Assembly: GCA_963734495.1 (NCBI GenBank) | Contig: CAVTHK010000008.1 | Span: forward strand, 9,611-73,610 | Direction of reading: 5' to 3' | DNA from: an uncultured Spirochaetota bacterium | Lineage (GTDB): Bacteria; Spirochaetota; Spirochaetia; SZUA-6; CAVTHK01 | Length of the DNA: 64,000 nucleotides | Shown here: piece by piece, positions 3,674-19,544 of the stretch | Layout of the letters: the number at the start of each line of letters is the position of its first letter | Numbering within the stretch: the stretch's first letter is position 1 | The notes under the pieces: model-generated | Told to the model about the DNA's origin: nothing | The model's database searches: none | The model's input: only the letters and a program-made list of their open reading frames with translations | Position numbers and translations under genes: made by a program

Positions 3674-4312
3674 ATGAGGTACCGGGTAGCGGCGGCTGTT
3701 GCGTGTCTGGCCTTCGTCGTGGCTCTCGCTGCCGGTCTTGCGGGCGGCGTGCGGTTCGGCACGGTGCTGCTGCGCGCGATCGTTGGCGGTGCGGTCTTTG
3801 CGGTGCTGGGGACTGCCGTCACGGCGCTTCTCGAGCGGTTCCTGCCGGAGCTGGTCAACGGGCTCGCGGACAGTGCGGGCCCGGTAGAGACGCCCGCGGA
3901 GGCGGAGGCGCCGCGCATCGACATCGTGCTCCCGGAGGAAAATCCGCTGGAGGACGCGATCGCGGCGGACCTGGAGCCCGCAGACGAGGCGCCTGCCGAG
4001 CCGCTGGAGGAGCCGGGGCCGGGCCTGTCGGGCCCGCCTGAGGGTGCCGCGGAGCCCGTCGGCAGGCCTTCGGCAGTCGAGGATCTCACGGCGGAGCCGC
4101 TCGGGCAGAGCGGTGACACCGACAGTGGCGACAGCGACGACGCCCTGCCCAGCCTCGACGGTCTGGACCTGGAGCCGCCGGCGCCCCCGTCCGAGGCTTC
4201 GCGCGGCGCGTCCGGTGCAGCCGGCGCGAGCGGCGCGCACGGCGCGCGCGTCGACCCGTCGCAGGCCGCCCGGGCGCTGAAAACCTGGCTCAAGAGGGAC
4301 CATGAAGGCTAA
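3674..4312 (+). CDS. Hypothetical membrane protein (2 N-terminal TM helices, acidic linker, C-terminal helix) between flhG and fliA
   Basis: Hydrophobic N-terminus, acidic low-complexity middle, [16 protein letters not shown] tail; overlaps the fliA start. Confidence 0.8.
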
Positions 4313-5102
4313 GCGGAGCGTCGGCAGGCTGAGCGGCAAGAGCGAAGACGAGCTCTGGAGCCTGTACCGCAGCACGCGCGATCCCAGGATTCGCGACCAC
4401 TTCGTGCGCCAGTATGCGCCGCTGGTCAAGTACGTCGCCGGCAAGGTCGCCATCGGCATGCCTCACAACGTCGAGTTCGACGACCTGGTCGGCTACGGCG
4501 TGTTCGGCCTGTTCGACGCGATCGCGAAGTTCGATCCCGAGAAGCACGTCAAGTTCAAGACGTACGCGGTCACCCGCATCCGGGGCGCCATCTTCGACGA
4601 GCTCCGGTCGATAGACTGGGTGCCGCGCTCCGTGCGGCAGAAGACGCGTGAGCTGGAAGAAGCCATACGGACGCTCGAGTCGCAGCTCGGCCGCGCCGCC
4701 ACCGACGAGGAGATCGCCGCGGCCATGAGCGTCTCCGTCGAGGAGCTGCAGTCGCTCATCCTCAAGATCAGCGGCACCTCGATGCTGTCGCTCAACGACG
4801 TGTGGTACTCCGGCGAGGAAGACGACAAGATCTCGATCGGCGAGAGCATCGAGAGCCCGACCAGCATGAACCCCGACATCATCGTCGAGAAAGACGAGAT
4901 CAAGCGGGTGATCATGCGGACCATCCAGGAGCTCCCGGACAAGGAGAAGAAGGTCCTCGTCCTGTACTACTACGAGGACCTCACGCTCAAGGAGATCGGC
5001 CACGTGCTGGGCGTGACTGAGTCGCGCATCTCCCAGCTCCACACCAAGGCCATCATGCGCCTCCGGGCCAAGCTCACGAGCGTGCGCAAGGGGATCGTGT
5101 AG
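4302..5102 (+). CDS. fliA: RNA polymerase sigma-28 factor (FliA/WhiG family)
   Basis: [36 protein letters not shown] and [27 protein letters not shown]. Confidence 0.96.
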
Positions 5103-5154: not shown

Positions 5155-7095
5155 CTGGTAAAGCTCGCCCAGATACAGGATTTCATGGCGCAGCAGGCGG
5201 TCCGCGACCGCGGGACCCGCTCGGTCCGCGTCGAGGGCTCGAGCCTCGAGGACGCTCTGGAGAACGGCGCGATCCAGCTCGGCGTGGCCCTCGACCGGCT
5301 GGAATACGAGGTTGTCACGCGCGGCGACCGAGGCCTCTTCGGCCTCGGCCGAAGGGCGTGGGTGGTGCACGTGTACGAGTCGACGCTCGTCGCCTCCGCC
5401 GCCGCCGAGGCGGGGACCGCGGAGGGCGCCCTCGCGTCCGGGGCGGCGGCCGATGAGAGCGCCGATCGGCCGGGGGAGATCTTCGTCAAGCTCGTCCAGG
5501 GCAACGTGTTCCTCAAGGTGACGCGGCCGCACGGCAAGGCGCCGCGCATCACCGACCAGGTCGCGTCGCAGTCGCTGGCCCGCAGGGGGGTGAGGGACTT
5601 CGACGCGGGCATGGTCTCGCGCGTGGTGCGCCGGGCCGACGGCCAGTTCGTGCAGGTCGGCGCTTTCGAATACAACCCTGCGAACGACGCCGTGGCGTCC
5701 GTCGAGCTCGCGGACCAGGAGATGAAGGCGTACGTCGAGGTGAGGCCGCCGGGACCCGGCGGCGCGGACCTGACCTTCGACGCGCTGGTGGGCGTGCTCA
5801 ACAACAACGGCGTCCAGCACGGGATCCGCGAGGACGCGCTGCGGGAGCTCGAGGACGCTCCCCGGTACAACACGACGATCCTGGCGGCGGAGGGATCGCC
5901 CGCCGTGAACGGAGCCGACGCGGAGATCGTCTACAATTTCAAGACCGAGCGCTCGCCCGTGCTCAAGGAGAAAAACGGCCGCGTCGACTTCCGGGAGCTG
6001 AACCTGGTCGAGAACGTGGTCGCGGGGCAGATCGTGGCGAGGAAGATGCCGGCCGGCGAGGGGCACGAGGGACGCACGGTCACAGGCCGGACCCTCCCGT
6101 TCAAGGGCGGCCATGATGTCACGCTCAACGTCGGCAAGAACGTGAAGCTCGCCGAGGACGGGATGACCGCGATCGCCGAGATCAACGGCCAGGTGCTGTT
6201 GATCGGCGGCAAAGTCAACGTCGAGCCCGTCTACACCGTCGGCGGGGACGTCAACCTGCACACGGGCAACATCCTCTTCCTGGGCGGCGTGATCGTCAAG
6301 GGCGGCATCGACGACGGCTTCACGGTCAAGGCGGCCGGCAACATCGAGGTGTTCGGCAACGTCGGCAAGGCCCAGCTCGACGCCGAGGGCGACATCATCG
6401 TTCACCAGGGCATCCTCGGCAAGGGCGGCGGCAAGGCGACCGCCGGCAAGAGCGTGTACGCCAAGTTCATCGAGCACGCTCACGTCGAGGCGGGCGAGAA
6501 CGTAGTGGCGGCCGAGGGGCTCATCCACTCCTTCGTGGACGCGAACCGCAAGATCGTCTGCCAGGGCAAGCGGGCCTCGATCGTCGGCGGTCGCCTTCGG
6601 GCGGCGGAGGAGATCAACGCGAAGAACCTGGGCTCGGTCGCCGGCACGGAGACCCTGCTGGAGGTCGGCTACGACCCCAAGAGCAAGGAGCGGCTCGTCG
6701 AGTTCGAGACGACCATGACGCGGCAGCGCAAGGAGCTGGAGGAGCTCGAGCGGAACATCAAGACGCTGCTCACGCTCAAGCGGGTCACGAAAAAGCTCCC
6801 CGACGAGAAGGAAGCGTACCTCGCCCAGCAGCTGGAGAAGCGCTCGCTGGCGCTCGCCACCATCAAGGAGGCGACCGCCGGAGTCGAGGAGATCAAGGCG
6901 CGCCTCGCGTCGATCAAGCGCGAAGGCAGGATCTCGGCCTCGGACACGGTCTTCGCCAACGTCAAGATCTTCATCAAGGACTCGAGCCTTGTGATCCGCA
7001 ACGAGCACAAGACCGTGACGTTCGTGCTCGATCAGGGCAACATCAGGGTGACGAAGTACGAGCCCCTCGAGGAAGACTTCACCCGCAGGGGATAG
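5155..7095 (+). CDS. fapA: FapA/DUF342 flagellar assembly protein with an N-terminal Jag_N-like domain
   Basis: GRVDFRELNLVENV, GDVNLHTGNI.F.G and VDANRKIV..G..ASIVGG repeats. Start is either CTG 5155 after GAGGAGG or ATG 5185. Confidence 0.85.
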   Translation: MVKLAQIQDFMAQQAVRDRGTRSVRVEGSSLEDALENGAIQLGVALDRLEYEVVTRGDRGLFGLGRRAWVVHVYESTLVASAAAEAGTAEGALASGAAADESADRPGEIFVKLVQGNVFLKVTRPHGKAPRITDQVASQSLARRGVRDFDAGMVSRVVRRADGQFVQVGAFEYNPANDAVASVELADQEMKAYVEVRPPGPGGADLTFDALVGVLNNNGVQHGIREDALRELEDAPRYNTTILAAEGSPAVNGADAEIVYNFKTERSPVLKEKNGRVDFRELNLVENVVAGQIVARKMPAGEGHEGRTVTGRTLPFKGGHDVTLNVGKNVKLAEDGMTAIAEINGQVLLIGGKVNVEPVYTVGGDVNLHTGNILFLGGVIVKGGIDDGFTVKAAGNIEVFGNVGKAQLDAEGDIIVHQGILGKGGGKATAGKSVYAKFIEHAHVEAGENVVAAEGLIHSFVDANRKIVCQGKRASIVGGRLRAAEEINAKNLGSVAGTETLLEVGYDPKSKERLVEFETTMTRQRKELEELERNIKTLLTLKRVTKKLPDEKEAYLAQQLEKRSLALATIKEATAGVEEIKARLASIKREGRISASDTVFANVKIFIKDSSLVIRNEHKTVTFVLDQGNIRVTKYEPLEEDFTRRG

Positions 7096-7098
7096 CCG

Positions 7099-7422
7099 AT
7101 GCCGCTGCTGCCGATCGACCTGCAGACCGTCTTCTCCCAGACGAACCAGGTGGGCCGCGATCAGGCGGTCCAGCAGCAGGCTCCCCCGCTGGCCCAGGCG
7201 CAGGCGGGGTCGGAGCTGGCCCGGCAGGCGCAGGTCCGCGACACCCAGGTCAACGAGAGCAACGACGCAGGCGACGGCGCCGAGCCGGTCAAGGACGAGG
7301 AAGCCGGCGGGCGCAGGCGCGGGCGCGGGAGGGGCCGTGCGCGGGAGCGGAAGGCCGAGCCGCCCCGCAGGCCGGTCTTTACCGACCCCGAGCTCGGGCA
7401 GCACGTGGATATCACGGGGTAG
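7099..7422 (+). CDS. Small conserved hypothetical protein of the fliA-fapA cluster
   Basis: MPLLPIDLQ...DPELGQHVDITG termini are typical of the ORF following fapA. Confidence 0.75.
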   Translation: MPLLPIDLQTVFSQTNQVGRDQAVQQQAPPLAQAQAGSELARQAQVRDTQVNESNDAGDGAEPVKDEEAGGRRRGRGRGRARERKAEPPRRPVFTDPELGQHVDITG

Positions 7423-7432
7423 CTGCCGCACC

Positions 7433-7945
7433 ATGGCAAGCGTCTTCGCCGTCGCCGCCGCCGTCCTCGCCGGCCTCGCCGTGGTCTACCTGGCGCTGCG
7501 CACCCGCATCGACAGGAGCATTGCCCGTCTCGATCCCGCAGCCGAGATCCGCGAAGAGCTCGCCTCCGTCATGGTGGAGATGAACCGCACGACGGAGCGC
7601 AACATCGCGCTCCTCGAGGACCGGATCGGGCAGCTCAACCAGCTCCTCGCCGATGCCGACCGGAAGATCGCCCTCGTGCGGCGCGAGAGCGAGAAGCACG
7701 AGACCAGCCGCATGGTGTACACGCACCTCGCGAAGGCCGCGGCCGAAAAGCCGCCGGCTCCGCCCGCGCAGCAGGCCGACCGGGCCGAGGACGGCCGTGG
7801 GCCGGCGGCGCCCGCGGAGACGCTTGAGAGCCGGATCCTGAGGCTCGAGAGGGAAGGGTTCTCGGCGGCTGTGATCGCGAACCGTGTCGGTTCGACGATC
7901 GGCGAGGTCGAGCTGATCATCTCCCTCGCCCGCCGCCGGCCATAA
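7433..7945 (+). CDS. Membrane-anchored coiled-coil protein with a C-terminal HTH-like motif (DUF6115-like)
   Basis: N-terminal TM, NRTTERNIALLE coiled coil, C-terminal GFSAAVIANRVGSTIGEVELII. Confidence 0.75.
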   Translation: MASVFAVAAAVLAGLAVVYLALRTRIDRSIARLDPAAEIREELASVMVEMNRTTERNIALLEDRIGQLNQLLADADRKIALVRRESEKHETSRMVYTHLAKAAAEKPPAPPAQQADRAEDGRGPAAPAETLESRILRLEREGFSAAVIANRVGSTIGEVELIISLARRRP

Positions 7946-7984
7946 AAAAAACGGTATGCCTGGACGTCGAAGAGCATACCGTTT
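7944..7984 (-). terminator. Intrinsic terminator on the minus strand
   Basis: 11-bp stem AAACGGTATGC/GCATACCGTTT, 14-nt loop, ending in an 8-U run (A run at 7944-7951 on the plus strand). Confidence 0.85.
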
Positions 7985-8017
7985 GCGGGAATCGAGACGA
8001 ACGGTCCCGGCCCCAAT
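7944..8017 (-). ncRNA. Candidate sigma-28-dependent small RNA (about 70 nt)
   Basis: Lies between a sigma-28-like promoter (8050-8023) and a strong terminator; no complete ORF is evident within it. Confidence 0.5.
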
Positions 8018-8022
8018 TCTAG

Positions 8023-8050
8023 AAATCGGCGCGCGCCGGGCCTAGCTTGA
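8023..8050 (-). promoter_or_regulatory. Sigma-28 (FliA)-type promoter
   Basis: TCAAG-N15-GCCGATTT; the -35 element lies in the last codons of the Maf/DUF115 gene. Confidence 0.6.
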
Positions 8051-9860
8051 GCGTCCGGCTTCCAGGCGCGCCAGCGTCCGGCGAACGAGCTGCTCGTGCA
8101 GGCGCGCCGAGCGCTCCATCTGCAGATAGATCTCCCGCGTGCGCGCCACCGGGTCGGTCCCCGGCTTCTCCTCCATGATGCCGTGAATGATCGGCTGCAT
8201 GAGGAACCCGAGGATGTCGCGCGCGCCGACTTCGAGCATCTCGGCGTCGCTGCGGTCGAGCTCCGCGAGCGCCCGGGGGTCTCGCGCCGCGCGGTCGGCC
8301 GCAGCGACCGCGTCGCGCGCCACCCGGCGGGCGCGACCGAGCTCCCGCAGCAGCTCGTCGAGCGATCCCTTCAATCTTGACCAGTCCGGCGCCGGCTCGG
8401 CCCGCGCATCCCGCGCGGCCCGGGCAATGCGCGCGTCGATCTCGCGCCGGCAGCGAGGCATCGCAAGGACGGCTTCGATTGTCGCCGGCTCGATGCCCGC
8501 CACGGCCACGCCGCCCGCCGACAGGTTCAGCGTCCGGACCTCGGGGAACCTCCTGGCCTGACCCTCGAACCAGGAGGCGTAGATCGCCATGCGGCGGTCG
8601 GTGAGCACGGTCCCGCCGCAGTTCGAGCGCACGGGAAACGGGCCCGCATCCGCCAGGTAGGCAAAGGCGTGCTGCTCGGCGGGCATGGTGCGCCGGGACA
8701 GCGCGAGAAAACGATGCTCGAAAAAGGCGCCGCGGAAGTGGGTCGCGCGGCCGGGGTAGCCCAGGTCCAGCCCGGCCATCACGATCGGCCGCGCCCCCGA
8801 GACGCGCGCAAGGTCCCAGGCCGTGGTCGCGACCGAGCCGCCGGCCCCGAGCTCGCCCTTGCGCGATCCGAACGATTCGAGGTAACGGCCGAGCGGGAAG
8901 AGGGAGCTCATGAAGAAGGCCGTCGGCGGCGCGAGGCGCAGCGCGCGCGGGTGGGTCGCCGACTCGGCGACGAGCAGCGTCCGCGGCGACTCGGTGCCGT
9001 CGAGGTGCCTGCTGTTCCAGTACTGAGGGTCGATCAGCACCACGAAGTCGGGCTGGACTCCCTGCGCGAGGCAGGCCCGCAGGCTCGTGTCGACCGAGAT
9101 CACGACGCACCGCTCGGCGAGCTCGCGCAGCCGCGGCATGACCGCGTCCAGCGAAGGTCCGGAGGCCAGAACCAGCGCGGGCAGGCCGTCGAAGAGGCCG
9201 CGTATACGCTCGACTCCCGGCGCCGCGAGAAACGTCTCGAGGTTCCGCAGGAGGTTCCGCACCCACAGCGGCCCGAAGCGCTCGAGCGTGTCGACGTTGA
9301 CGCGGCCGCGGTCGCGAGCCGCGACCAGGATCTGCCGCACGCGGGCGAAATAGACGGCATGCCGCTCCTCGACGGCCCGCAGCCTGAGCAGGCACGGCGC
9401 CCGCAGCGGGAAGCGCTCGCCCCGCGCCTTCGGGATCGAGCAGGCCCAGCAGCGGCTCGGGGTCGGGGGAGACGTGCAGGTCGAGCCGGGGATCGGCGAG
9501 CAGCGCATCGAGCGGGCGGCACGAGAGCGCCTGCGCGAAGAGCCCGGGATCGGGCTCGACCGCGAGGACGGGGAGCCCCGGCCGCAGGCGCAGCAGGGCT
9601 TCGCAGACGTAGCCCAGGCCGAAGCCGAAAACGACGGCGGCGGTGGCCCCGGGCCCGCAGCCGCCGCCGGCGATCCGCTCGGCCTCGCGGACCGGGTCGA
9701 AGAGGCTGTGCAGGAGCTGGCCGCCGGCGCGGGCGGTGGGCGAGCCGGTGCGCGCGGCGAGGATCTCGACGTCCGCCGGAGGCGCCGCGCCCGCCAGCTC
9801 CGCCGCAAGCCGCGGCCAGCGGTCCGCCAGCGTGGCGAGGTTGCGCTCGAGGTGCGTCAT
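8042..9860 (-). CDS. Motility-associated factor (Maf, DUF115/MptE-like) putative flagellin glycosyltransferase; frameshifted near 9430
   Basis: N-part MTHLERNL...LHSLFDPVREAE...FGFGLGY is in one frame; C-part NLLRN...LASGPSLD...PDFVVLIDP...GGSVATTAWD...GLDLGY is in another. Confidence 0.85.
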
Positions 9861-13960: not shown

Positions 13961-16714
<2,754 letters not shown>

Positions 16715-16720
16715 GGGTAC

Positions 16721-16773
16721 AGTGTACCCTCGCCCCGCAAACGTTGACAAGCTCGGGCCGCGGCGACTACACT
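16721..16773. promoter_or_regulatory. Divergent sigma-70 promoters with overlapping -35 boxes
   Basis: Plus strand TTGACA(16744)-N18-TACACT(16768); minus strand TTGTCA(16750)-N18-TACACT(16726). Confidence 0.65.
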
Positions 16774-16843
16774 CGTCGCGCACATGCACGCGCCGGGACT
16801 GCACTCGGGGGCCGGGGACGGCCGGAGGCCGTCGCCCGCGGGA

Positions 16844-18061
16844 ATGCGGGCGCGCGTCCTTCTCTTGACCGCAATGGCGGCCGCCTTCGTGTCCTGCACA
16901 AAGATCTCCACGCCGACTCTCCCGCGGGAAGAGCTGTTCTCGCTGGGCCTCGGCAACATGGAGAACCAGATCGACCTCTTCATGGTCGACGGCCGCCCCC
17001 TCAACAGGAGCAACCTGATCTACGTCAAGGGCGGAAGGATCTACATCGTCAACGGGAACGCCTCCAAGATCATGGAGTTCACCCCGTTCGGCGACCTGGT
17101 CTTCCTGCTCTACAACGCGGACGTCAACCCGCAGCCCGTCATCCTCAAGCCGGCCGCGGCCGGCGCCGACGAGCCCAACCGCCGCGCGCAGGGCTACGCG
17201 CTCGCCGACCCCGGGGTGATGGCCGTCGACGGCGAGAAGCGGCTGTACGTCGAGGACCGCGTCGGCCCTCTGCAGGGCCGCTTCGACGAGAGCACGGGGA
17301 CGACGCACTACGCCCACGTCCTGCGGTTCGACCGCGACGGGAAGCTGATCGACTACCTGGGCCAGGAGGGGGTGGGGGGGACCCCCTTCCCGTTCATCGA
17401 CGCCATCCGCATCACCGCGCACGACGAGCCGGTGGTCGTCTGCCGCGTGCCCCCGGCCCGCTGGATCGTCTACTGGTTCACCAAGGAGGGCTCGCTTCTC
17501 TACCGCGTGGAGTTCGACCGCGACTACCTGCCCGCCCCGCAGGACACGCTCCCGTTCCTGGAGGGGATCTTCGCGGACTATTCCCGCCGCGAGCTCCTGC
17601 TCGCCGTGAGCTACTACAGGGAAGAGATCAACGCGTCCACCCGCACGCCCGAGACGTGGCTGCACGTCGGGACGCGGATCCACCGTTTCGACATCGCCAA
17701 GGCGGAGTACGTCGGTCAGGTCGACGTCCCCGACGCCGGCGTGCGGCGCGAGCGGGTCGGGGCTTCCGAGCTGGAGATCCCGTCTCCGCCTTACGAGTTC
17801 CTCGGCAATACCCGCAACGGCTACCTGTTCTTCCTCAAGCCCGAGGAGGCCAACACCTACCGGCTCCTCGTCCTGGACGCGAGGGGCCGGGAGCATGCCC
17901 GGCGCCTCATCACGGTCGAGGACCAGGAGCTTTCCTTCAAGAAACTTACCCTCTCCGAGGAAGGCGTGCTCGCGGGTCTGCTCGGCCTCAATGACGGGGC
18001 GCGGGTCGTCTGGTGGCGGGCGGACCGGCTCGTCGAAGGTGCGGGGGATGCGCGTCGTTAG
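16844..18061 (+). CDS. Conserved spirochaete lipoprotein (LIC_12708-like) divergent from secA
   Basis: Lipobox-like AFVSC after a hydrophobic leader; [11 protein letters not shown] and [15 protein letters not shown] motifs; family name is recalled, not searched. Confidence 0.65.
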
Positions 18062-19544
18062 CTCGGCCGAGATGGCCGAGATCGACCGGTTGACGCAGGC
18101 GGAGTACTCGATCCCCGGGATCGTCCTGATGGAAAACGCGGGCGCGAATGCCTTTCGAGCCCTGCTCGACCAAGGCCTGCGCGAGCCGGTCGTCTTCGCG
18201 GCCGGTAAAGGGAACAACGGCGGCGACGCTTTCGTGATGGCGCGCCACGCGCAGCTCGCCGGGATCAAGCGGCTCGCCGTCATCCTCGCGGCCGGGAGGC
18301 CGCGCGAAGGCAGCGAGCCCGCGCTCAACCTGGCCTCCTGCAGAGCTCTCGGCATCGGCGTCATCGGTTTCGAGGAACGGGCGGCCCGGGCCCGGCTGCA
18401 GGAAGCGGCGTGGATCGTGGACGGCGTCGCGGGCACGGGGCTCACCGGCCCTCTGCGCGCTCCGCTCGACCGGGTCGTGCGGGCCATCAACCGCGCGCCG
18501 GGAAAGAGGGCGGCGGTCGACGTTCCCAGCGGCCTGCGCGACGGCTGGGTCGCGGCGGAGCCCGTGGTTCACGCGGACGTCACCCTGACCATGGGGCTTC
18601 CCAAGCGCTGCCTGTACCTGCCGCAGGCCCGCGCTCTCTGCGGCAGGATACGCGTCGTCGACGTCGGTTTTCCCCCCGCGCTCCTGGAGGCGGCCCACCT
18701 GCGGGGCGAGCTGCTCGCCGCGGCCGACCTGGATCGCCTCGTTCCGCCGCTCGCGCCCGACACGTACAAGAACCGGCGCGGTCACCTCGCGGTGTTCGCC
18801 GGCTCCCCCGGCACCACCGGCGCGGCGTGGCTTGCGGCTCACGCGGCGGCGCGATCGCGGACCGGGCTCGTGACGTTGTACGCGCATCCGGAGATCTACG
18901 CCGCGGTCGCCGGCGGGTACAGCTCCGTGATGGTGCGCCGCGGCACGCCGACCGCTCTGGAGCTGGCCCGCCACACCGCCTTCGTGGCGGGTCCGGGGTG
19001 GGGGACGACGCAAGAGCGCAGGTCGGAGCTGGCGCTGCTGCTGCGGAGTCCGCTCCCGGGCGTCATCGACGCGGACGCCCTTGCTCTTGCGGCGGACATC
19101 CTGGCGAGGGACGGCGTCGCTCCCGGCGGGAACCGCGTGCTGACGCCTCACCCCGGCGAGGCCGCGCGCGTCCTCGACTGCCCGGTCGCGGACGTCCTGC
19201 GCGACCCTCTCGCGGCGCTCGAGGAGGCGGAAAAGAGGCTCGGCTGCGTGATCGTGCTCAAGGGGCACGTGACGACGGTCTGGTCTCCGGGCGGCCGCTT
19301 TGCAGTGCTCGACGGCATGAACGCCGCGCTGGCGACGGGAGGCAGCGGCGACGTGCTCGCCGGAACGATCGGCGGGCTGCTCGCGAGCGGCCTCACGGCC
19401 GAGGCCGCCGCCCGAGCCGGGGTGCTGGCGCATTCGGTGGCGGCCTTCCGCGCGGCAAAGGCGCGCGGGCTCTTCCTTTCGGAGGACCTGTTGCCGTTTC
19501 TCTCGCGCGTCTTCGCGCCGCGGCCTGACCGGAGGCAGCCGTGA
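18048..19544 (+). CDS. nnr: Bifunctional NAD(P)H-hydrate epimerase/dehydratase
   Basis: [37 protein letters not shown] and [12 protein letters not shown]. Confidence 0.95.

Follow-up and report, generated by a model that had tools for sequence, protein, structure and literature searches.

Does the 96-nucleotide (nt) gap between two convergent flagellar operons of a spirochaete merely hold the signal that ends them, or does it also hold a gene? The question is raised by a 64,000-nt stretch of contig CAVTHK010000008.1 (hereafter the window), from an uncultured Spirochaetota bacterium whose genome assembly comprises 5.38 Mb, has 68% G+C and is 83% complete. At the border between the gene maf and the convergent DUF6115 gene, a first-pass annotation of this DNA had proposed a small RNA (sRNA) dependent on the flagellar sigma factor sigma-28 (FliA), and comparison with related genomes now supports that proposal through the promoter, the loop and the covariation of the stem. 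Window 8051-7944, on the minus strand, is accordingly read here as an sRNA gene of ~70 nt with a sigma-28-type promoter, conserved through much of the class, a reading to which a probability of about 0.8 is assigned; its product would act in trans and would be coupled to class-III flagellar expression. The promoter motif, both hairpins, the loop motif, the single copy per genome and the linkage to maf and to the fliA cluster are established by sequence comparison. The parts of the proposed gene, in the order in which they would be read, are the following:

8044..8051, minus strand: -35 element of the sigma-28-type promoter, CTCAAGCT, overlapping the final codons of maf, stop codon included
8023..8030, minus strand: -10 element of the same promoter, GCCGATTT, with CCGA invariant or nearly so in the alignment of 27 relatives' loci
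8014..8017, minus strand: predicted transcription start, placed from the position of the 5' hairpin in relatives and the usual start distance of sigma-28
7987..8014, minus strand: 5' hairpin, variable in sequence but kept in structure, from folds
7951..7982, minus strand: 3' hairpin with arms ACGGUAUGC (7982-7974) and GCAUACCGU (7959-7951) and a 14-nt loop (7973-7960), from fold and conservation
7960..7967, minus strand: near-invariant loop octamer ACGUCCAG, the presumed recognition element, from alignments
7944..7951, minus strand: U8 tract of the intrinsic terminator, sharing two bases with the DUF6115 stop codon

On the minus strand maf ends in CGC TCA AGC TAG, and TCAAG (8050-8046) is followed after 15 nt by GCCGATTT (8030-8023), exactly as the first-pass annotation had read it; the element as a whole consists of CTCAAG-N-GCCGATTT, followed by one hairpin on the 5' side, a second of 9 bp whose loop has 14 nt, and U8. 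Sigma-28 promoters combine a TAAA(GTTT)-like -35 element with a GCCGATAA-like -10 element at a spacing of 11-12 nt, and their transcripts begin ~7-8 nt past the -10 element. The words found in the window, CTCAAGCT-N12-GCCGATTT, fit this form. From 8014 down to 7944, after the predicted start region, ~71 nt remain, in keeping with the earlier estimate of about 70 nt ending in a stem and U8, and their 3' part is ordered as arm ACGGTATGC (7982-7974), loop, arm GCATACCGT (7959-7951) and T8 (7951-7944). RNAfold enlarges the 9-bp arms to a stem of 12 pairs, including three A-U pairs with the U tract and a closing U.G pair, and this 9-12-bp stem followed by U8 has the form of an intrinsic terminator. 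On the opposite strand the hairpin is bulged and less regular. The sole open reading frame (ORF) that reaches into the gap (7486-8016, minus) is antisense to DUF6115 and without a Pfam match.

The evidence that carries the proposal comes from other genomes. When 801 nt around the site were compared with 40 related genomes, the only strong match in 32 of them, drawn from eight families of the order, was the hairpin with its U tract, 37-50 nt long and 85-97% identical; the eight genomes without such a match are six of family f7 together with G039 and G040. The loci of the conserved element span 36-73% G+C, and identity of this degree across eight families and so broad a range of base composition sets the element apart from a mere terminator of the PBP-maf operon, the outcome that the first-pass annotation had named as its own alternative. 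With the exact hairpin pattern, and one genome taken per species, at least 118 species records are found to carry the element. Among the matches listed, all but three bear spirochaete names (Spirochaetaceae, Marispirochaeta, Salinispira, Sediminispirochaeta, Rectinemataceae, Treponemataceae and others), the exceptions being two records labelled 'bacterium' and one labelled Syntrophaceae. The Syntrophaceae record (L121, 635 nt of a metagenome-assembled genome) is, among the matches listed, the sole one that has the exact hairpin and U tract without a sigma-28-like promoter; it may represent a contig binned wrongly, a transferred sequence or a copy that has no promoter.

A covariance model of the RNA, R1, finds a single copy per genome in 66 of the 92 genomes of the order. 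Family f7 contributes only one positive among its 24 members, as against 64 of 67 in the other families (host genome excluded). Among genomes sampled evenly across the class, R1 matches 70 of 151. Even sampling of the whole phylum gave six matches at E ≤0.001, of which only those in G000 and G150 have the loop motif and the promoter; the other four were rejected as ordinary terminators behind genes, and no credible element was found outside the class by R1 in this phylum sample. Rfam 15 holds no covariance model that matches the locus at E ≤10, nor one that matches the loci of 15 relatives at E ≤0.1. The statement of the first-pass annotation that no such RNA has been described in spirochaetes agrees both with this lack of an Rfam family and with the full-text literature, in which no published description was found, supplementary tables of structured-RNA surveys, which could list it under another name, lying outside that coverage; in the accessible text of the Weinberg 2017 survey, the only passage naming 'Spirochaet' concerns another motif. 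As far as these searches show, the RNA family is a real and undescribed one, belonging to a known kind of regulator.

Upstream of the hairpin, the promoter words recur with a constancy of their own. The pattern T[ACT]A[AT]-N15-17-CCGA lies within 110 nt upstream in 132 of 147 hairpin matches (species present in two collections being counted twice), and most of the 15 without the exact motif read TCGATA or ACGATA where CCGA would stand, or are truncated by the end of a contig. Twenty-eight foreign loci were compared directly. In the 27 that could be aligned, the -35 element of the window corresponds to CTAAAG, CTCAAG or CTTAAG (CTAATT in one), followed by an unconserved spacer and by (G)CCGA(T/A/C), all in a single register; in the 28th (L033) a contig end cuts the -35 region. 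Because these loci were found by the hairpin alone, their promoters are an independent observation. Among 20 divergent class members that were fetched separately, the promoter is kept in ~19, so that conservation of both the -35 and the -10 element, on which the earlier proposal depended, holds for near and distant members alike.

Position weights were built from 111 unique foreign promoters, whose consensus is CTAAAGTT / GCCGAAAA, with GCCGA(A/T)(A/C)(A/T) at the -10 element. Their spacers fall into classes of 64, 45 and 2 members. The promoter in the window belongs to the second commonest class, that of 45 of the 111, its spacer from TCAA onwards exceeding by one base that of the commonest class (64 of 111), a correction to the earlier description. 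In a genome of the same genus CTCAAG and GCCGAT are retained around an unrelated 16-nt spacer, and the maf frame over CTCAAG is shifted by one base relative to the window; conservation of CTCAAG is therefore not explained by protein coding. A simple promoter and terminator scan reported nothing at the locus, being built for sigma-70 promoters and for loops of at most 8 nt, and the hairpin was missed because its loop exceeds that length.

A like motif precedes flaB genes of the host genome. For flaB2 of Treponema denticola, the accessible text of the published account (PMC9481697) gives a sigma-28 promoter mapped by RLM-RACE, with -35 TTAA and -10 CCGATAA. Two flaB loci on different contigs (G000:C4:6426-6453 and G000:C15:6137-6110) have nearly identical sequence over ~300 nt upstream and the same promoter-like site, CTAAAG...TCCGACAA, and reflect either a recent duplication or one region assembled twice. 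Another sigma-28-like site, GTCAAGG...ACCGATAA, lies just past two tandem flaB genes (G000:C7:322169-322197, plus strand; 20.0 bits, rank 6).

The structure of the RNA is conserved in two quite different ways. In the 3' stem, seven of nine pairs show changes on both sides among 48 sequences aligned to R1, with 99.5% of 432 cells paired, none of 500 shuffles reaching 7/9 and slid controls giving at most two such pairs, figures to be read with the knowledge that an alignment fitted to the structure of the model is biased towards pairing. Divergent members replace UAUGC/GCAUA with, for example, UACGC/GCGUA, CGUG/CACG, UUUGC/GCAAA or AUAUAC/GUAUAU, compensatory changes that leave the loop motif untouched. 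Every aligned relative has five or more consecutive T directly after the hairpin. Loop length ranges from 12 to 16 nt across relatives, and therefore no reading frame through the hairpin is kept. The octamer ACGUCCAG, which makes up the 3' half of the loop, is by contrast near-invariant, its sole variants seen being AUGUCCAG, ACAUCCAG and ACGUCCGG. Covariation and a conserved loop, both of which the RNA as first proposed should possess, are thus found; less survives of the two pyrimidine-rich segments that had been singled out as unpaired pairing sites. One, UUCGUCUCGAUUCCC, sits in the variable 5' hairpin and is neither unpaired nor conserved, and of the other, in the loop, only the 3' half is conserved.

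In the 5' hairpin it is the fold that is retained. A helix of at least four pairs forms in 102 of 105 unique sequences (L062, L093 and L108, in which the promoter was mis-assigned, being left out of the count) and reaches z < -2 in 86, with 62 distinct outer-helix sequences; these are per-sequence folds and not column-wise covariation, MAFFT and RNAalifold having failed to align the variable hairpin. Of 105 unique relatives, 103 have its first paired base 6-10 nt past the -10 octamer. The start is predicted at ~8014-8017 because the hairpin thus begins where a sigma-28 transcript would, and from starts guessed in this way the RNAs of relatives would measure 54-81 nt (median 67) and that of the window ~70 nt. 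The linker between the two hairpins is short and A-rich (GCAA in the window).

Some further features of the RNA were noted in passing. Of the 105 unique sequences, 67 contain GGA in the 5' segment, where shuffling gives 34.8 on average and 46 at most; the word usually forms part of GAGGA or AGGGA and lies on the 5' arm of the 5' hairpin (for example in L012 and L009). Opposite these words the 3' arm of the 5' hairpin is CCUC-like, and the two resemble a Shine-Dalgarno/anti-Shine-Dalgarno pair. The sequences give no sign that the 5' segment pairs with the loop as a pseudoknot, complementarity of at least 4 nt being present in 31 of 105 as against a shuffled mean of 35.7. Self-pairing of the loop through a GACGUC palindrome was rejected as not conserved, since about one fifth of the sequences are non-palindromic there (AACGUC, GACAUC, GAUGUC, UACGUC).

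The genomic setting of the gene adds a second line of comparison. Its neighbours in the window are these:

8042..9808, minus strand: maf (MptE-like/DUF115, 588 amino acids), directly upstream; Pfam PF01973, E 5e-37
11728-9857, minus strand: PBP gene, preceding maf
7337..7945, plus strand: DUF6115 gene, convergent, last of the flhA-flhF-flhG-fliA-fapA cluster; Pfam PF19610, stop codon at 7943-7945
4302..5102, plus strand: fliA (sigma-28), 2.9 kb from the sRNA gene; Pfam sigma-70 r2, r3 and r4

On the plus strand flhA, flhF, a MinD/FlhG-like gene, an unassigned ORF, fliA, fapA and the DUF6115 gene follow one another, and fliA is matched by TIGR02479 with 288.9 bits (G000:C8:14014-14688). The RNA gene had been placed some 3 kb from its own sigma factor and convergent on the flhA-fliA operon, a description that fits the measured 2.9 kb and the convergent DUF6115 gene. 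No terminator lies between the maf stop codon and the sRNA promoter in the window sequence, and the maf mRNA must therefore carry the element. De-duplication left 128 loci, of which 94 have enough upstream sequence to be judged: maf is directly upstream on the same strand in 83, convergent downstream in three and without a match within 2 kb in eight. Since the usual position of the gene is directly after maf, with a shared terminator, the sRNA sequence is also the 3' end of the maf mRNA.

Within the order maf is present in all 66 RNA-positive genomes and absent from 25 of the 26 RNA-negative ones, the exception (G227) having a weak partial match. The single RNA-bearing genome of family f7 is also its single maf-bearing genome, with both on one short contig, and maf is found in each of the 70 RNA-positive genomes of the class sample. 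The fliA gene, which scores above the curated cut-off in 85 of the 92 genomes of the order, shares a contig with the RNA gene at a distance of 2.9-8.6 kb in 40 of the 66 RNA-positive genomes, the two being on separate contigs in the other 26. The RNA gene and maf can also be parted. In family f56 they stand tail-to-tail, and in G272, G306 and G282 they are 19 kb, 83 kb and 0.9 Mb apart; because the promoter is retained in these arrangements, the RNA gene is a unit of its own. Nor is a same-strand gene served by this promoter to be found in 91 loci. In 63 of them the nearest downstream ORF is convergent, encoding a CheW-domain protein, DUF6115 or a TPR-like protein depending on the family, and most of the 28 ORFs called on the same strand belong to high-GC loci, in which ORF calling is unreliable.

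Other observations on these neighbourhoods may be recorded here. A protein ending in a CheW-like domain (...FSGVSVLGDGR..FILDT...; loci L012, L013, L017, L021, L023, L026, L028-L030, L034, L035, L054 and L058) takes the place of DUF6115 as convergent neighbour in families f2, f6 and f8, and the RNA there lies ~3 kb further from the DUF6115 homologue than in the window. A relative has two full-length FliA matches of equal score side by side on a single contig (G220:C57:19681-21068), possibly through tandem duplication or as an assembly artefact. In the FapA homologue of the window (5185-7095, plus), FapA_N and the FapA beta-solenoid are preceded at the N-terminus by Jag_N (PF14804, E 3e-14), a domain known elsewhere from the RNA-binding protein Jag/KhpB. 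At 13961-18490 (minus) the longest ORF that holds SecA has 1509 amino acids, with SecA domains beginning only at residue 598, and is probably an over-extended call in high-GC DNA, not a genuine N-terminal extension.

How such an RNA would work can be proposed in outline. Transcription would start from the FliA-type promoter at ~8017-8014 and give an RNA that opens with a stabilising 5' hairpin, free to drift in sequence between species, continues through the A-rich linker and closes with an intrinsic terminator that displays a loop of 12-16 nt. The RNA would be made late in flagellar assembly, on release of FliA, and would act in trans through its exposed octamer, either by pairing with a short complementary site or by binding a conserved protein, so as to couple a step of filament production or of flagellin modification to class-III expression. 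In this host it would have to do so with neither Hfq nor ProQ, both of which were sought and not found in the 83% complete genome; CsrA is present.

The conserved single-stranded octamer ACGUCCAG is the natural seed candidate, and complements to it were sought widely. No conserved complement was found in whole genomes (as a 10-mer), flaB leaders, the maf coding region or ribosomal RNA, seeds of 6-7 nt being beyond the reach of such searches. A perfect complement of 10 nt of the loop, searched for in five low-GC genomes, occurs in G024 and G015 only in the RNA gene itself and elsewhere not above a control word. In 15 flaB upstream regions of five genomes the longest exact complement is 0-8 nt, at inconsistent places, and the suggested pairing with ribosome-binding or CsrA sites thus finds no counterpart in these leaders. 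Against the 16S and 23S ribosomal RNAs the matches were of 7 nt only and did not exceed the control. The reverse complement of the whole RNA has as its best match in its own genome 19 nt with one mismatch, inside a non-flagellar ORF of 600 amino acids (E 0.26), which was judged to be chance. A set of loop-complement 7-mers enriched ~1.2 kb upstream was rejected as a target: these are codons of the conserved Maf motif GPSLD, CTGGAC is present in only 15 of 79, and because the codons vary freely there is no constraint at the level of RNA. Three metatranscriptome and metagenome runs from the same study, searched with window 7700-8300 at 85% likeness, gave no match and so no evidence either way. 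A motif fixed at 36-73% G+C and a 10-nt complement missing from two of five genomes outside the RNA gene speak for a protein or other invariant partner; a short pairing seed may serve instead.

Several of these results, together with others from the host genome, weigh against the proposed gene. In a weight-matrix scan of the host genome the window promoter does not rise above chance: it scores 20.2 bits and ranks fifth of 109 matches above 15 bits, and the reversed genome used as control has 80 comparable matches, at least 10 of which score higher. The folding energy is likewise at chance there, the 116-nt fold having z = -1.1 and 26 of 200 shuffles folding equally well. The case accordingly rests on conservation in other genomes, since promoter and fold by themselves are at chance in this one. 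To this must be added the bias of the covariation alignment already described and the lack of a target in the searches with the loop 10-mer complement, the flaB leaders and ribosomal RNA. Moreover, family f7 has fliA matches in all 24 genomes and the RNA in only one, so that its absence does not follow from loss of sigma-28, and 40 maf-positive genomes of the class sample are without the RNA. For these two reasons the RNA does not belong universally to the sigma-28 regulon or to the function of Maf. The co-occurrence with maf, too, reflects mainly one clade-level loss and shared contigs, and hence few independent events.

Alternative explanations must be judged against the same body of evidence. 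The simplest would see in the element no more than the intrinsic terminator at which the PBP-maf operon ends, one that might be bidirectional and stop the DUF6115 transcript as well, and in the promoter words a coincidence. A strong stem with U8, placed between convergent genes 60 nt past the maf stop codon, is what such a terminator would look like, the opposite strand has an A run before the same hairpin and TTTG after it, and the promoter match in the host genome is, as noted, no better than in the reversed control. Terminators are not, however, conserved in sequence across families, whereas here 32 of 40 genomes agree at 85-97%, loop included; promoter words stand at a fixed distance in 132 of 147 matches, and they are kept where maf is tail-to-tail (f56) or unlinked (G272, G306, G282). 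Conservation, promoter spacing and the divergent members together largely refute this explanation on comparative grounds, and it is now very improbable. More can be said for a cis-acting element in the 3' untranslated region (UTR) of the maf mRNA, whose loop would bind a factor for stability, localisation or translation of that mRNA while the promoter added competing free copies. The mRNA does carry the element in the window, no terminator intervening; of the 94 informative loci, 83 have maf upstream in the same orientation, and maf accompanies the RNA in 66 of 66 positives of the order and 70 of 70 of the class sample. Yet retention of the promoter in nearly every species would be unexpected if the UTR copy alone mattered, the promoter is still there in the tail-to-tail genes of f56 and in the three genomes with 19 kb to 0.9 Mb between RNA and maf, and 40 maf-positive genomes do without the element, all of which leaves a chiefly cis-acting role unlikely.

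Two further possibilities concern the DNA and a protein product. A site for a dimeric regulator between convergent flagellar operons would account for arms that form a perfect and strongly conserved 9-bp inverted repeat, but not for an arm spacing that ranges over 12-16 nt, for asymmetric conservation confined to the 3' half of the loop, for a T run that is always on one strand only, or for arms that in divergent members change compensatorily with RNA pairing kept, G.U included; hardly any weight can be given to it. Just as little probability attaches to a leader or attenuator of the downstream gene, or a gene for a tiny protein. Here the ORF that follows most closely is convergent at 63 of 91 loci and varies with the family (the 28 same-strand calls being mostly unreliable high-GC ones), a loop of 12, 13, 14, 15 or 16 nt keeps no frame and the RNA ends in a full terminator, against which can be set only an ATG fixed in the 5' arm (GGTATGC) and GAGG-like words in the 5' hairpin.

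The reading of the locus as a sigma-28-dependent sRNA gene therefore remains the preferred one, and what it would mean for spirochaete biology can be considered. Post-transcriptional control of the periplasmic flagella of spirochaetes is known mainly through CsrA and FliW, and E. coli and Campylobacter are, in the accessible literature, so far the sole bacteria in which sigma-28-dependent sRNAs have been characterised. A broader proposal, put forward tentatively and at somewhat less than even odds, is that among trans-acting regulators of the spirochaete flagellar hierarchy this RNA would be the first to be described for the sigma-28 tier, working without Hfq and retained from before the divergence of the families of the class. 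On this proposal its loop octamer would dock one conserved partner (a protein or a short RNA site), by way of which free FliA would exert feedback on the modification of flagellin by Maf or on the assembly of the filament. As a candidate it is well defined: the gene is present once per genome, its promoter can be recognised, the RNA has two hairpins and a motif of eight bases that hardly varies over 36-73% G+C, and the gene is physically tied to that of a presumed flagellin glycosyltransferase. It opens the question of what free FliA signals back to the spirochaete cell, for which the covariance model and the loop, as a target for point mutation, are at hand, and it has value for annotation, as the species records that carry the gene, at least 118 of them, carry it unannotated.

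Comparison with known systems places the RNA among several types of bacterial regulator. Some likeness to the CsrA sponges CsrB and RsmZ is given by the presence of CsrA in the host and by the enrichment of GGA in the 5' segment (67 of 105 sequences, shuffled mean 34.8). These words number at most one or two per RNA, however, are mostly in a stem and do not occur in the invariant loop, and a sponge of this type was rejected because repeated GGA loops are absent. In RepG of Helicobacter pylori, the C/U-rich loop of the terminator is the pairing region and pairs with a G repeat. The spirochaete RNA would be alike in having as its functional site an exposed and conserved terminator loop, and differs in the motif of that loop, ACGUCCAG, and in that no complementary target was found for it.

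Campylobacter jejuni is not known to possess Hfq. Two of its flagellar sRNAs are described in the accessible text of Konig et al. 2024 (PMC11187230), where CJnc170 (FlmR) is FliA-dependent and CJnc230 (FlmE) RpoN-dependent. CJnc170 thus offers a likeness by promoter class, as a FliA-dependent sRNA in a bacterium with CsrA and FliW. CJnc230 resembles the spirochaete RNA in its position, being directly downstream of a flagellar gene whose transcript it shares, as the spirochaete RNA shares that of maf; its targets flgM and Cj1387c are, according to the same text, known, whereas the target searches made here found none. The C. jejuni sRNAs belong to another phylum and show no sequence similarity to the RNA of the window.

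The sigma-28-dependent sRNAs of E. coli are UhpU, MotR, FliX and FlgO (2023; accessible text of PMC10578931). As described there, they too are short RNAs tied to the flagellar sigma factor and derived from or embedded in untranslated regions (UhpU from the 3' UTR of a gene), and they overlay post-transcriptional control on the flagellar hierarchy, a role that the spirochaete RNA would share. They are reported in that text to be associated with Hfq, which like ProQ was not found in the 83% complete spirochaete genome, and between the two groups there is no relationship in sequence or in Rfam. The spirochaete RNA is distinguished from the E. coli set by its class-wide conservation and its fixed loop. 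Most enterobacterial sRNAs have a narrower spread.

DapZ and MicL exemplify 3'-UTR sRNAs that have a promoter of their own inside or just after the upstream coding region. The arrangement in the window is of this kind, with a -35 box over the maf stop codon, no intervening terminator, and a terminator shared with the maf mRNA. It does not extend to family f56 or to the three unlinked cases, and with the RNA gene apart from or opposite to maf in some families, the UTR position is a common but not a defining property of this RNA, whose own promoter goes with it.

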